A stretch of 64,000 nt of DNA from Candidatus Thorarchaeota archaeon (GTDB taxonomy: Archaea; Asgardarchaeota; Thorarchaeia; Thorarchaeales; Thorarchaeaceae), in assembly GCA_046482545.1 (NCBI GenBank), contig JAWOEX010000039.1, positions 96,001 to 160,000 on the forward strand, written 5' to 3'. This document shows positions 44,926 to 56,849 of this stretch, one piece after another. The first letter of the stretch is position 1, and the number at the start of each line of letters is the position of its first letter. Under the pieces are notes generated by a model, which did not search any database, was not told where the DNA came from, and worked only from the letters and a program-made list of their open reading frames with translations. A program made the translations under genes and the position numbers.

Positions 44926-45046
44926 AAGTATCCTTCAGATTTTCGATAGCACTCAATCGCAACTATTATTAGGATAAAGCCGTTAACTATTGTTAAAGGT
45001 ATATGCACTAGCAGTAGTACTGCACTGCCTTTTCAGAGGGGTATTA

Positions 45047-47818
45047 ATGAACCAAGAAGAAAAAGAAAAGAAACAGAAGAAGCTATCAATTAATGTTGAA
45101 GGAATGCATTGTGCTTCGTGTGTTGCAACCATCGAAAAATCACTACTGAACGAAGATGGCGTTATCAAAGCCAGTGTGAATCTTCTTGATGAAAAAGCAC
45201 TTGTCCAATATGATGCTGGTAAAGTGAATCGCTCAAAGCTAGAGAAAGCGGTTGAGAACACTGGTTACAAGGTAAGAAGGGCGGGCATAACTTACTCTCT
45301 CGATCCCACTCCTGAAACTGACGGATGGGAAACTATTCGGGAAAACATGCAAAGTATGGAGGGCATTATCACAGTAAACACGTACCCGGAAACCGGACGT
45401 GTTCTGTTAGAGTTCGACGAAGAGCTGCTCAAACCTAGAACAATCAAGAATGAGTTAGAGGGTTTGGGATATGATGTGGAACAAAGCGGAGGTTATGCAG
45501 CAGACAGAGAAGCTTCGGCTAGAACCGAGGAAATAAGGAACTACTTTCTGCTATTCGCATTCTCACTAACTCTGACAGTTCCAGTAGTTCTCATCATGTT
45601 CAATGTTATCACACCATTTCTTCCATCTTGGATGCCCCCAGAGATTCTGATGTTCGTCCTTACAACCCCTGTCCAGTTCATTGCGGGATATCCTTTCTAC
45701 AAAGCAAGTTTTCGCGGATTAATTCACGGCAAGACGAACATGGATACTCTCATCATGCTCGGAACGAGCGCAGCATACTTCTACTCTGTTGCTGCCACGT
45801 TCCTGTTTCCCTCTTTCGCATCTTTCTATGACACATCGGGCATGCTAATCACCTTCATTCTGTTGGGTAGAACACTCGAAGCTATAGCGAAGGGAAGAAC
45901 ATCAAAAGCCATACGGAGTCTCATGAGCCTACAAGCGAAAGTCGCCAGAATCGTCCGCGATGGTGAGGAGAAGACAATACCCGTAGAGGACGTACGACGT
46001 GATGATATAGTTCTTGTCAGACCTGGCGACAAAATTCCGGTCGATGGAGAAGTAGTAGAGGGACATTCAACCGTAGACGAGTCTATGATAACTGGCGAAT
46101 CAATACCTGTTGAAAAGGCGATGGGTGATTCAGTCGTTGGAGCGACCATCAACAAGAACGGGGTTCTGCGGGTTCGTGCAACCGAAATCGGAGAGGATAC
46201 TGTTCTCTCTCAGATTGTCGAGCTTGTGGAAAAAGCACAGACAGAAAAGCCGCCTATCCAACGAAAAGCTGATGCCATAGCTGAGGTCTTTGTGCCAGTA
46301 GTTCTCTTAATCGCGGCCATAACCTTCGCGGGTTGGCTTGTCATCGGTGCTGCTTCCTGGACCCGAGCACTCAGTTTCACAATTGCGATTCTTGTTGCAG
46401 CCTGTCCTTGCGCTCTTGGACTTGCAACTCCAACGGCAATCATGGTTGGCCTAGGAAAAGGCGCAAAGAATGGAATCCTCATTAAGAACGGTTCAGCACT
46501 AGAAGCAATCCCTAACATTGACATCATCGTTTTCGACAAAACCGGTACTCTCACGACTGGAAAGCCACAAGTGACTGACTTTATCACAGATGACGATTTG
46601 GACAAAGAAAGCCTACTCGCAAGTATAGCATCAATCGAAAAGAACAGTGAGCATCCTCTTGCAGAGGCCATAGTTGAGTATGCGGATGACCAAACCTTGG
46701 TCACGCAATCTGTTGAAGATTTCAAAGCGTTATCTGGCATGGGTGTGAGAGCACGAATAGGTGACAATGAATATCTAATCGGCAATCAGAAATTGATGGA
46801 AGAGAACGCTATCAGTATCAAGGATATCACGTCACACAGTAAAGTGCTGGAAGAGCAGGGTAAGACAACAGTCTATTGTGCGCAAGATGGTATTGCAAAG
46901 GGAGTTTTTGGAATCGCGGATACACTCAAAGCTAGCTCCGCTGACACCGTAGCAGCCCTTAGTAGAAAGGGAATAGAAGTCTGGATGATTACAGGAGACA
47001 GAGAGCGTACTGGGCGGGCGATTGCAAAGAAAGTTGGGATTGACAGTGTGATGGCGGAAGTTATGCCATCGGAGAAAGCAGAAAAGATCAAGGAATTACA
47101 GGCAGAGGGGCGGGTTGTTGCTATGACTGGGGATGGAATCAATGATGCTCCGGCCTTAGCGCAAGCAGACGTAGGCATTGCTCTTGGCTCTGGTACTGAT
47201 GTATCGGTTGAAACTGGTGATATAGTGCTGGTGCGAGACAACCTTCTCGATGTGGTCAATGCCATTGAACTAGGTAATCGTACTATGACAAAAATCAAAC
47301 AAGGCTTTTTCTGGGCACTTGTCTACAACATGGCGTTATTGCCAATCGCTGCAGGACTGCTTTATCCTTTGTTTGGATTGGCATTACGGCCAGAATTTGC
47401 CGGGCTTGCGATGGCATTATCAAGCGTAAGTGTCGTGTCCAATGCGCTACTACTGAACAGGTTCGAACCGAGTCGTGATACTGAATCTCAGACGGAACCC
47501 GTTCCGAGAGATCACCAAGTTGTAATTGATCCTGCGTGTGGAATGGAAGTTGACCCAGAGACCTCGCATCTGTACACTGACTATGAAGATAAAAGATACT
47601 ACTTCTGTGCTCCCAGATGCAAGAAGAAGTTCGAGGAAAATCCAAAGAAGTTCATAGGCAAATATGAAGAGCAAGAAATTGCAATCGATCCTGTTTGCAA
47701 AATGGAAGTCAATCCCCAGACCACCGACCTTTATACAGATTATCAGGGCGAGAGGTTCTATTTTTGCAATCCATATTGCAAAACCAGATTCCGAGAGAAT
47801 CCCGAAAAGTATCTGTAG
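45047..47818 (+). CDS. copA: Cu(I)-translocating P1B ATPase with two C-terminal YHS/TRASH domains
   Basis: GMHCASC, TGES, CPC, DKTGT, SEHP, GDGIND, YN, MALSS; two DPxCxMEV...YFC...C repeats. Confidence 0.95.
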
Positions 47819-51364: not shown

Positions 51365-51793
51365 TTACTGCGGTGTCTTGCGGGTTCCTAAGTAGTAGCA
51401 GCCGCTGAACATAATAGCTATGCCTACTAGCAAAACAATTAGCATGAAATTTTGTGTTGGTATGTCTGTTGATAACAAATACCCTGCCAGAGAAATCAAA
51501 ACTACAATGAAACCAATTGCGGCAACTATTCGTCCTGGACGTGGATTGAATTTCATGAATGGAGGAACATCTTCTTCCGTTGATTTCATTTCATGTTCAA
51601 TCTCAACATCATCCCCAAAGAACCTCTCGCCATCTTCAGTGATATAACCGTCAAGCTCTCCCTCTTCAACTAAATGTGTAAGGTAGTCCCTTACAGTTTC
51701 TAAGTCCAGATTGAGTCTTTCGGCCATGACCTGGATGGAGGTCAGATGCTCCTTTTTCACTACCTCTAGCAATTTTTCCTTTTGGGAGGTCAT
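51365..51793 (-). CDS. PCI-like winged-helix protein with two C-terminal TM helices
   Basis: SIQVMAERLNLDLETVRDYLTHLVEEGELDGYI; two TM at C-terminus; start probably 51793. Confidence 0.65.
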   Translation of the reverse strand: MTSQKEKLLEVVKKEHLTSIQVMAERLNLDLETVRDYLTHLVEEGELDGYITEDGERFFGDDVEIEHEMKSTEEDVPPFMKFNPRPGRIVAAIGFIVVLISLAGYLLSTDIPTQNFMLIVLLVGIAIMFSGCYYLGTRKTPQ

Positions 51794-51865
51794 AAGTATT
51801 CTCACTGCCTCTAGCAATTTCCTCTTGTGAGAGCTCAAAAACTTGTTGCTTGGATTCTCGGTGAC

Positions 51866-54559: not shown

Positions 54560-55624
54560 TTACTTCTCGTAGAAGTATTTCCCTTCGGAGTAGATTACCT
54601 CATCTCCTGCCAGCACTTTTCCTTGCTTCATGTTTTTTATCATATCAACATGTACGGCACTGTCATTAGTCCCATTACAGTCCTTGTATGCTCTACCCAA
54701 AGCGCAATGCACAGTATCGCCTATCTTCTCGTCGAAGAGCATGTTGAGCGTATACTCCTTAATGCCACGATTTGTTCCGATAGCCATCTCACCAAGATAG
54801 CGAGAGCCTTCGTCCGTATTGATGATAGACTCCAGTACTTCTTCGTTCTTTTCCGCCGAGTAATCAACAACTTCACCGCTTTCGAAGACAAGCCTTACGC
54901 CTTCGATAACCTTGCCCTGCTGCATAAACGGAATATCGAAGTAAATCGTGCCTTCAACGGTATCTTCGACAGGTGCAGTGAAAACCTCTCCACTTGGCAT
55001 GTTATGTTTTCCATCGGATGCTACCCAGATTCGTCCTTCGGTTGAGGCTTGGAGATCTGTCTCGGGTCCTACAAATCGGACATCATCGTGTCGTTCCAGA
55101 TGCTCTTTCATGAGATACATATTCTCACTTGCTTGTTCCCAATCGATGAGTGTAGCATTGTATACGAAGGTCTGGTACTCGTCTAGGCTCATATTGGCTT
55201 GTTGAGCCAATGTTCGGCACGGATGGACGGTCCCGCACCATCGCTTATCCATGATGATATCGCTTAGCTCTTTGCGTGTCTTGCGGGAAATCATTTGTCT
55301 TTTCGGATCAACATTGGCCATAGCTTTGGTGTTTACTGGCGAGCTGACACCGATGAATACGTCTGCAGCTTCAACCGCAGCTTTCTGGTGCTTTGGGAAG
55401 ATTTTCAGTGTCTCGTCCGATGCTCCGTCAAAGAAGGCTCTGGAGGCCTCTTCGCTTGACATCAAAACCATTGGAACTGCGCCTGCCTTGGCTATTTCGC
55501 GGTTTAGTGCGACAACCAAATCATGGGCATCAGGGTGCGCTCGGATTATTACCATGTCGCCTTCTTGGACTTCGGTAGACCATTCGACAAGAATTTGTGC
55601 ATGTTTCTCAATTCTCGAATCCAT
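54560..55624 (-). CDS. M29 aminopeptidase (AmpS/AmpT-like)
   Basis: NMPSGEVFTAP, GEMAIG, FDEKIGDTVHCALG, SAVHVD. Confidence 0.93.
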   Translation of the reverse strand: MDSRIEKHAQILVEWSTEVQEGDMVIIRAHPDAHDLVVALNREIAKAGAVPMVLMSSEEASRAFFDGASDETLKIFPKHQKAAVEAADVFIGVSSPVNTKAMANVDPKRQMISRKTRKELSDIIMDKRWCGTVHPCRTLAQQANMSLDEYQTFVYNATLIDWEQASENMYLMKEHLERHDDVRFVGPETDLQASTEGRIWVASDGKHNMPSGEVFTAPVEDTVEGTIYFDIPFMQQGKVIEGVRLVFESGEVVDYSAEKNEEVLESIINTDEGSRYLGEMAIGTNRGIKEYTLNMLFDEKIGDTVHCALGRAYKDCNGTNDSAVHVDMIKNMKQGKVLAGDEVIYSEGKYFYEK

Positions 55625-55769
55625 AGAATATCACAACAAATAGAATCTGAGAATATGCAGGTGATATAGATTCCGAATGCAGCGACAACATATTGAATCT
55701 CAAACTAAAGAGTCATACAAACAGGGATACAAATGGGGTTTCCAACTATTGGCACCTGAAGACTCGGGA

Positions 55770-56200
55770 AGTTGGTATATCAGCTGTGTAGATGGCTCGT
55801 TGAGCACCGGTGGGGTTTATCTTGTTATGGTGGCCTTTACTGATACGACTAATCTATAGACGAATTTTCCGTGGGTATTTTATGCGTTCTTTGAGATAGT
55901 GGTTGTGACTGCTATTCTCAGGTTCGTGGGCAAAGGCTGGAGACTTGACTCGCATAGAAAGGATGAATTCATCAAGGTTGACACTAGTTTACTTCGGAGC
56001 GTTGTTGTCAATGACGAATGAATCATTTTCGGGCCACCTCAATCAACATTAGGTGAGGCGTGACGTGCAGACTTGTCTTTCGAGACTATCAAAGAGGAGG
56101 GCAAGTGAATTATCGAGAACACACAAAGCAATGATATCACTCGAAAACGGTTGTCGGACTATGACGGGATTGCCATAATCGTGGCGAAATACGGTTCGGA
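55770..56200 (+). pseudogene. Decayed paralog of the TM + ubiquitin-like gene at 56367
   Basis: One frame with 4 stops: ...FIKVDTSLLRSVVVNDE*IIFG...EA*RAD...GK*IIENTQSNDITRKRLSDY; aligns to FTEVDTSQLHRVVI...NDITDKKLSDY. Confidence 0.82.
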
Positions 56201-56366
56201 ATGCACCCGAAACTATCACATCGAGAGTAGGTCTTACTCCTCGATAGAAGACAGCGTCGAATTCTATGGTTGCTCATGAACCACTCTCATGAAACAGCAC
56301 TTTTGCAGTTAAAACATAAAAGCAGAAATGTCGGAAATGTAAGTGTACGTAGGAGGTCCAAGAATA

Positions 56367-56849
56367 TTGGATTACGAGTCAATTAAGAATCTTGCCAAGC
56401 TCTTTGTGTCAGCGTTTGTTGTTACCGTAATGTTCATCTTACTCTATCCGTTCCTAGGGCCATATCTATTGTTCTCGAGCTTGATGAATACCCCATTGGG
56501 GTTGTTTGTGATGGCTTTCACTACTGCGCTGGTGGCAGTCACACTTTTCTCCTATGCGAACAGCCGAATTGGTGCTGCTGATCAAAGAGACCGTAGTTTC
56601 ACCGAGGTTGATACTTCTCAATTGCACAGAGTAGTTATTGATAACCTCACCGGTGAAGAAAAAGTAATCTCGGGGAGTCAAGATGTAACATTTCGATCGG
56701 CAGCTCAGAAAAACTGGCCTTTTGAAAGAATAGACAAAAAATCAAACTGGGTAATCGTAGATGAGCGTGGAAACGATATTACGGATAAGAAACTAAGCGA
56801 TTATCATGAAATCACCAGAATACAACTGAAACATGAAACCAGTGGGTAG
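56367..56849 (+). CDS. Two-TM membrane protein with C-terminal ubiquitin-like domain (putative)
   Basis: TTG start after AGGAGG; two TM; soluble domain aligns by eye to ubiquitin (LTG, LSDY). Confidence 0.7.
   Translation: MDYESIKNLAKLFVSAFVVTVMFILLYPFLGPYLLFSSLMNTPLGLFVMAFTTALVAVTLFSYANSRIGAADQRDRSFTEVDTSQLHRVVIDNLTGEEKVISGSQDVTFRSAAQKNWPFERIDKKSNWVIVDERGNDITDKKLSDYHEITRIQLKHETSG

Follow-up and report, generated by a model that had tools for sequence, protein, structure and literature searches.

A Thorarchaeal family of small membrane proteins with a predicted ubiquitin-like domain and sequence kinship to an operon-type prokaryotic Ubl

In eukaryotes, the integral membrane proteins HERPUD1 and TMUB1/2 and the membrane-anchored ubiquitin-fold (MUB) proteins present a non-conjugated ubiquitin fold on the cytoplasmic side of a membrane, where it has an adaptor role. 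Among prokaryotic ubiquitin-like proteins (Ubls), bacterial BilA, the protein of PDB entry 8tyx, belongs to an antiphage system (10.1101/2023.09.26.559546), and Ca2+-dependent Ubl filaments have been described (PMC11601603). Among Asgard archaea, the Thorarchaeota are reported to stand apart in having ESCRT but no ubiquitin (PMC9192718). The gene considered here lies in a window of 64,000 nucleotides, the whole stretch of DNA that was analysed, taken from the genome of a Candidatus Thorarchaeota archaeon (contig JAWOEX010000039.1, positions 96,001 to 160,000). A preliminary description, made from the letters of the window, had proposed a membrane-tethered, possibly undescribed Ubl-domain adaptor whose soluble part aligns by eye with ubiquitin.

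The gene starts with a TTG codon located 10 nt downstream of an AGGAGGT ribosome-binding site. Comparison with two same-genus orthologues gives a dN of 0.23 and a dS of about 2.7, the latter near saturation, hence the gene is under purifying selection. This selection, the ribosome-binding site and the two transmembrane (TM) helices establish that the gene is real. Contigs that match the 3′ half of the gene exactly occur in RNA runs of two metatranscriptome studies, in both of which the 5′ part has no contig cover; these contigs confirm the sequence of the gene, including its end, and not its transcription or level. Hydropathy gives two hydrophobic segments, in line with the two TM helices of the preliminary description, and the anchoring of the protein in the membrane stands (Table 1). 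In the 58 two-TM members of the family described below, Lys and Arg residues average 2.4 in the N-terminal flank, 0.2 in the loop and 2.4 in the C-terminal flank. Since these residues are found on both flanks and are nearly absent from the short loop, the termini and the soluble domain are predicted, by the positive-inside rule only, to be cytoplasmic.

Table 1 Positions of the features discussed in the text; locus handles precede positions outside the window.
Feature	Position	Strand	Remark
Gene for a 160-residue protein with two TM helices and a β-grasp domain, tail-less type	56367..56849	+	
Ribosome-binding site AGGAGGT	56350..56356	+	Shared by both orthologues, at equal distance from a GTG start
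TM helix 1, about residues 12–30	56400..56456	+	Kyte-Doolittle, 19-residue window
TM helix 2, about residues 44–62	56496..56552	+	Hydropathy; N-in/C-in topology inferred
Predicted cytoplasmic β-grasp (ubiquitin-like) domain, about residues 82–155	56610..56831	+	
C-terminal HETSG, of which ETSG arises by read-through of the stop codon found in the orthologues	56832..56849	+	DNA comparison
Decayed tandem paralogue, tailed type, directly upstream	55659..56267	+	tblastn
M29 aminopeptidase, divergently transcribed	54560..55624	-	Commonest neighbour, 11 of 21 loci
Winged-helix protein	51365-51838	-	
Heavy-metal P-type ATPase	44990-47818	+	
Two-TM protein with zinc ribbon	L045:12322-12747	-	
Five-gene cassettes	L122:7997-12903, L123:4703-9682, L124:3939-8893, L127:5001-9916		

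AlphaFold2, run with an alignment of 88 sequences, models the soluble domain as a five-stranded β-grasp with a pLDDT of 89 and a pTM of 0.76. The elements follow the order EEHE(E)E, with a mixed sheet over one helix, and include the short bridge and the helical turn that characterise ubiquitin-like folds. A Foldseek comparison with the PDB placed bacterial BilA (8tyx) first with an E value of 2e-4, and further matches were SUMO, ubiquitin, NEDD8 and ISG15; TM scores of the PDB matches were about 0.6–0.66. A wide structural search returned RBD, Ubl and FERM domains with largely tied Z scores of 6.4–7.8, and its best 50 rows were all ubiquitin-like. Matches in the ESM Atlas, with TM scores of 0.64–0.74, comprise YukD, Rad60-SLD, DUF2604 and unnamed Thermoplasmatota proteins; the best-fitting Atlas β-grasp domains are those of Thermoplasmatota proteins of 219 and 228 residues and of a 567-residue JAB protein (TM 0.69–0.74). 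All clear structural neighbours being ubiquitin-like, the ubiquitin-like fold first suggested by eye is borne out, and a prediction other than β-grasp, which the preliminary description had named as grounds for refutation, did not result; the predicted β-grasp assignment is secure, and structure cannot pick a subfamily. Conserved residues of the domain, whose net charge is -3 to -5, are R88, E98, G103, T108, W117, F119, W128, D132, the GND(I/V)(T/S) segment at 135–139 and L143, and the Arg on strand 1 is invariant in the family. D132 is kept in 84 of 87 relatives, N136 in 78 and D137 in 77.

The likeness to ubiquitin itself fared differently. The preliminary description had aligned the domain without gaps to ubiquitin residues 2–45. 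The eight identities of that alignment are present, and its global score exceeds those of 4999 out of 5000 shuffles for a stretch that was picked post hoc; the local score of 28, on the other hand, is no better than shuffles, 607 of 5000 (12%) reaching it. Averaged over 88 family members, the local score against ubiquitin is 21.8, and that of their shuffles is 22.4. Sequence searches of Pfam, PADLOC and the PDB with the protein or the family profile yielded no meaningful match, to ubiquitin or otherwise; the ubiquitin profile PF00240 gave no Pfam match, and comparison with six Asgard ubiquitins by hhalign gave 1.4%. The alignment had been staked in advance on the preservation of the matching residues among homologues, and these are largely lost among 87 relatives: the equivalent of L8 (L94) is kept in 6, E34 in 7, K29 in 8, D58 in 15, T9 in 19, I36 in 37, Y59 in 38, D52 in 39, S57 in 41, G10 in 53, G47 in 69, T22 in 73 and L56 in 74. 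The I44-equivalent is Ile in 43 of the 87 and I, V, L or A in 85. The pattern at this residue, I130, fits a buried, L43-like site in a register set from sequence alone, and the adjoining V131 is variable. With the L8-equivalent kept so rarely, the L8/I44 patch is not a feature shared across the family. Judged from the alignment, the ubiquitin matches that persist are probably fold-determining positions only, the surface ones (L8, T9, K29, E34 and D58) having been lost, and the sequence match to ubiquitin is mostly incidental.

The single Gly at the C-terminus, also pointed out at first, belongs to the window protein and not to the family. Two of 97 proteins end in Gly, one of them the window protein, and the C-terminal residues of the relatives are D, E, N, T, H, L and others. 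Both same-genus orthologues stop (TAG) after IQLKT and the window gene has no such stop; its ETSG end exists because that stop was lost and the former 3′ flank is translated. Unlike ubiquitin, SAMP, BilA and Ufm1, the family has no Gly(-Gly), conserved or open to maturation, directly behind strand 5. A link to Ufm1, suspected by eye, was dropped, as no Ufm1 match over the cut-off occurs in the genome and none in Pfam for either the family or the free Ubl described next.

The closest detectable sequence kin of the domain is an operon-type prokaryotic Ubl, in place of the ubiquitin named in the preliminary description. This free Ubl of 77–79 residues ends in DIAGG plus one residue and is encoded by the first gene of a five-gene cassette, the others encoding E2-like, ThiF E1, JAB and transglutaminase proteins. 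The cassette E1 is about 610–630 residues long and has an N-terminal ThiF-like part; the E2 was called from a motif pattern and a weak PADLOC match (E 0.003). The cassette resembles a self-contained conjugation system, although ubiquitin is reportedly absent from this lineage. Its Ubl was found in 4 of 400 Asgard genomes, namely 3 of 85 from Thorarchaeaceae and one from a different Asgard family, and the host genome of the window gene has no cassette orthologues. An hhalign comparison of the family with the free Ubl gave 96.5% over 67 columns, versus the 1.4% for Asgard ubiquitin, and HMM scores of 25–28 bits stand against shuffle maxima of 8–12, with reversals also far below. On these grounds, the membrane domain is kin to an operon-type modifier. 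Both share a W-x-x-x-D-x-x-G-N-D-I-T motif, and the window gene is the sole match of the free Ubl in the host genome by tblastn (E 0.003). Since the free Ubl keeps Gly-Gly and its enzymes, descent of the membrane domain from a modifier Ubl would be the simpler reading.

The family comprises 98 representatives at 50% clustering (about 100), with profile matches in 57 of 85 Thorarchaeaceae genomes at 1–6 copies each, often in tandem. The 314 other Asgard genomes yielded three weak profile matches and no TM-anchored member; two of the three are short stop-containing stretches and the third is the cassette Ubl. Among the Asgard genomes searched, the family is restricted to Thorarchaeaceae. The named members are Candidatus Thorarchaeota, with one Lokiarchaeota-labelled record falling in the same 90% cluster. 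A single-protein search for related loci returned one Stenotrophomonas stretch, which was taken as chance, and longer fused forms of up to 2000 residues were absent from 8000 candidates scored. Because the family is missing from 28 of the 85 genomes, many of them incomplete, and copies decay, it does not serve a core function. The early suspicion that the family is undescribed agrees with the searches: no Pfam family covers these proteins, and no description was found in the literature searched.

The Asgard ubiquitin systems invoked as context by the preliminary description are lacking in the host lineage, the Thorarchaeaceae, in agreement with PMC9192718. Ubiquitin and E2 exceeded the cut-off in 0 of 36 Thorarchaeaceae genomes each, versus 20 of 24 other Asgard genomes that served as positive controls. 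The host genome, 98.9% complete, yielded no E2 family member; it contains two ThiF/E1-like genes and one JAB gene, all away from the locus, and its ESCRT-III genes sit on other contigs. The host-genome ThiS/MoaD proteins tested gave no score with the family profile. The complementary distribution of the family and ubiquitin is that of a single lineage and not a statistical result, and for this reason does not show that one replaced the other.

The earlier statement that no E1, E2 or E3 gene adjoins the window gene is correct, and the inspection of neighbourhoods for ESCRT or proteasome genes that it recommended found none at 21 family loci, where no Snf7/ESCRT, proteasome, PAN, Cdc48, AAA, ThiF or JAB homologue occurs. 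Recurrent neighbours other than the aminopeptidase of Table 1 are a CitMHS-type transporter (8 loci), TauE (7), DinB (7) and a molybdopterin oxidoreductase (6), and such metabolic neighbours may reflect synteny only. In the winged-helix protein of the window, a weakly PCI/DDRGK-like domain (Pfam E 0.002–0.008) precedes two TM helices; the family of this protein is found near 7 of the 21 loci. Another two-TM protein, which carries a zinc ribbon at its C-terminus and matches no Pfam family, is encoded near 4 of them. The P-type ATPase carries metal-binding domains at its N-terminus and, at its C-terminus, two repeats with Cys residues (DP-x-C ... YYFC) that are YHS/TRASH-like by eye.

About 45 of 97 members extend past strand 5 into an acidic linker, predicted to be disordered (pLDDT < 50), that terminates in a V-E-[YF]-Y-D motif; the fuller pattern of this tail is Y-S-x-(I/M/L)-x-x-(G/S)-V-(E/T/K)-(Y/F)-Y-D. 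Among 45 tail ends, V occurs in 42, Y/F in 44, Y in 42 and D in 42. In a monomer model of a tailed member the tail is undocked, and this model gives no support to self-binding in cis. No other ORF of the host genome bears this ending. A DNA-pattern scan of 86 genomes listed 29 matches: 19 lie at the ends of family ORFs, one more is a similar orphan tail, and the remaining 9 are close to the count of 11 obtained with a reversed-pattern control; the ending is specific to the membrane Ubl family. The window protein, with its ETSG end, has neither the tail nor a C-terminal hydrophobic-Tyr-X. Over the stretch that aligns, its decayed upstream paralogue is interrupted by five in-frame stops; it also shows a gap of four codons and what is left of a tail, ending in SVEFY, and matches the intact tailed gene at the same position in genome G001 with 48% identity (tblastn, E 9e-69). 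In a domain tree, which is unrooted, built from few columns and has open forks, tailed and tail-less members interleave with 16 tail-state changes, 5 of them forced by starred branches.

Starting from the fold, the two TM segments, the lack of a conserved C-terminal Gly, the restriction to Thorarchaeaceae and the kinship with the cassette Ubl, which are direct results of the tools, the probable role of the protein is that of a non-conjugatable cytoplasmic docking or adaptor module, its ubiquitin-fold domain being presented from a small integral membrane anchor. Fold, tether and apparent novelty of the adaptor proposed at the outset survive in this reading; the L8/I44 patch, the terminal Gly and the ubiquitin context that had been cited in its support do not. 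A cassette-type Ubl would have been fused behind a TM hairpin, followed by loss of Gly-Gly and expansion by tandem duplication. The partner would be bound non-covalently by a conserved surface specific to the family and not by the I44 patch of ubiquitin. A candidate for this surface is R88/E98 on strands 1–2 together with the D-x-x-G-N-D hairpin common to the free Ubl, their outward orientation being suggested by the sequence pattern. In tailed paralogues, V-E-[YF]-Y-D on its disordered acidic linker could be a second ligand, such that two partners would be bridged at the membrane, and tail-less copies such as the window protein would offer the domain alone. By analogy with the membrane Ubl-domain proteins of eukaryotes, the pathway may lean weakly towards membrane protein turnover, with recruitment of a protease or AAA ATPase. 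Points that speak against the docking module are the metabolic neighbours, the lack of ESCRT, proteasome, AAA, ThiF or JAB homologues at the 21 loci, and the missing or decayed copies in part of the Thorarchaeaceae.

A special case of this docking module would be a membrane-tethered proteasome adaptor, in which the tail would enter the 20S α-ring pockets as an HbYX-type motif and the Ubl would bind a substrate or unfoldase. The tail does place hydrophobic-Tyr-X at the extreme C-terminus of a flexible linker (Y/F in 44 of 45, Y in 42 of 45), the PAN of the host genome ends in HbYX, the commonest neighbour is an aminopeptidase, and 19 of 19 Thorarchaeaceae genomes checked have two proteasome α subunits, with a Lys at the K66-matching position in those read. 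However, 42 of the 45 tails have Asp as X, and an acidic X abolished activation of the mammalian 20S by HbYX dipeptides (PMC10349142). The fixed Asp suggests a different pocket, and the tail may instead be read by one that is Asp-specific. TPR clamps, for comparison, read EEVD. Half of the family, the window protein included, is tail-less, and the neighbourhoods contain no proteasome genes. A complex prediction for a 32-residue tail with two α-1 and one α-2 subunits of the same genome scored 0.05, the mark being 0.32, and counts neither for nor against this reading. The proteasome adaptor is considered unlikely; if true, it would mean turnover of membrane proteins without ubiquitin. A combined reading also seems unlikely as a whole, in which the Thorarchaeaceae, themselves devoid of the Asgard ubiquitin system, would have turned a cassette-type Ubl into membrane adaptors with a proteasome-binding tail for conjugation-free degradation of membrane proteins, with the tail-less paralogues as partners or modulators. 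Of the two α paralogues of these genomes (L049 and L052 in the genome of the window gene; also L048–L055), the second has diverged in its N-terminal signature, which reads RIFAAEYA instead of RLYQVEYA.

A part in conflict or defence is decidedly unlikely; as a decoy or sensor bound to the membrane, the protein would imitate the cassette Ubl and capture Ubl-handling enzymes, either viral ones or those of the mobile cassette. The kinship with a Bil-like cassette Ubl, the best Foldseek matches to BilA of an antiphage system (10.1101/2023.09.26.559546) and the variable copy number, with its tandem arrays, pseudogenes and repeated tail-state changes, are in keeping with such a part, but the cassette Ubl is rare in Thorarchaeaceae and missing from the host genome, a PADLOC search with the membrane β-grasp domain gave no match, and the neighbours are metabolic and not defence genes. 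Little weight is given to a self-assembling membrane scaffold, whose domains would oligomerise, possibly via cations on the acidic D-x-x-G-N-D-x-T-D hairpin, in the manner of bacterial Ubl3. Its near-constant D132, N136 and D137 are also kept in the free Ubl, the helix is short as in bacterial Ubls and tandem paralogues could co-assemble; the D-x-x-G-N-D motif is, however, also an ordinary Asx β-turn.

It is very improbable that the protein is an effector of the Ras-binding-domain kind, holding small GTPases at the membrane. The RBDs of RAF1, BRAF and RGS14 rank 1, 2 and 5 by Z in the wide structural search, 22 Ras-family matches over the cut-off occur in the host genome and the strand-1 Arg is invariant; yet the top Z of 7.8 is tied within 1 with many other Ubls, the sequence kinship indicates a modifier Ubl, a small GTPase gene lies near only one of the 21 loci, and the domain is net acidic. 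RBD faces are basic. A conjugatable membrane-anchored modifier, to which the terminal Gly of the window protein, the two ThiF/E1-like genes and the JAB gene might point, can be dismissed as extremely improbable, its Gly being a recent read-through that the varied C-termini of the homologues contradict and the E2 being missing.

Compared with known systems, the family is nearest in sequence to the cassette Ubl (L122–L127), with the 67 aligned columns and the common motif given above; in gene content that cassette resembles Bub operons and the type II Bil systems of bacteria (BilA, PDB 8tyx/8tyz). The family differs from the cassette Ubl in having no Gly-Gly, in lying behind two TM helices and outside conjugation operons, and in being often acidic-tailed. 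With eukaryotic and Asgard ubiquitin it shares the five-stranded β-grasp and the T22, G47 and L56 positions, while it lacks profile similarity, L8/T9/K29 and the di-Gly; its helix is short and its strand 3–4 hairpin longer. YukD/EsaB and the N-terminal Ubl of EccD are likewise prokaryotic, non-conjugated and near the membrane (Atlas TM 0.67–0.68, feature score 0.79), and differ in topology; the YukD/EsaB Pfam profile (PF08817) matched 0 of 88 family members at E up to 1, and no type VII secretion genes are among the recurrent neighbours. The tailed members have hydrophobic-Tyr-X on a flexible tail in common with the HbYX activators PAN, Cdc48, Blm10/PA200 and Bpa, from which they are set apart by the fixed Asp at X, by being membrane-bound and by having no known ring.

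The likeness to HERPUD1, TMUB1/2 and MUB is one of analogy only, a cytoplasmic, non-conjugatable Ubl being joined to a membrane anchor in a topology that is predicted for the family. In HERPUD1 and TMUB1/2 the Ubl precedes the TM segments and MUB is lipid-anchored, and all of these act within a ubiquitin system, unlike the Thorarchaeal proteins. Membrane-held Ubl domains are thus already known as a kind, and the Thorarchaeal family itself is undescribed. Its 80-residue domain and five-residue terminal motif are two small, testable handles. Thorarchaeota do carry ubiquitin-fold domains, which are fixed to the membrane and apparently derive from an operon-type prokaryotic Ubl and not from ubiquitin. 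As a docking module, the family would allow one to trace how a conjugatable modifier became a membrane adaptor, the same step as that taken by eukaryotic Ubl-domain proteins.
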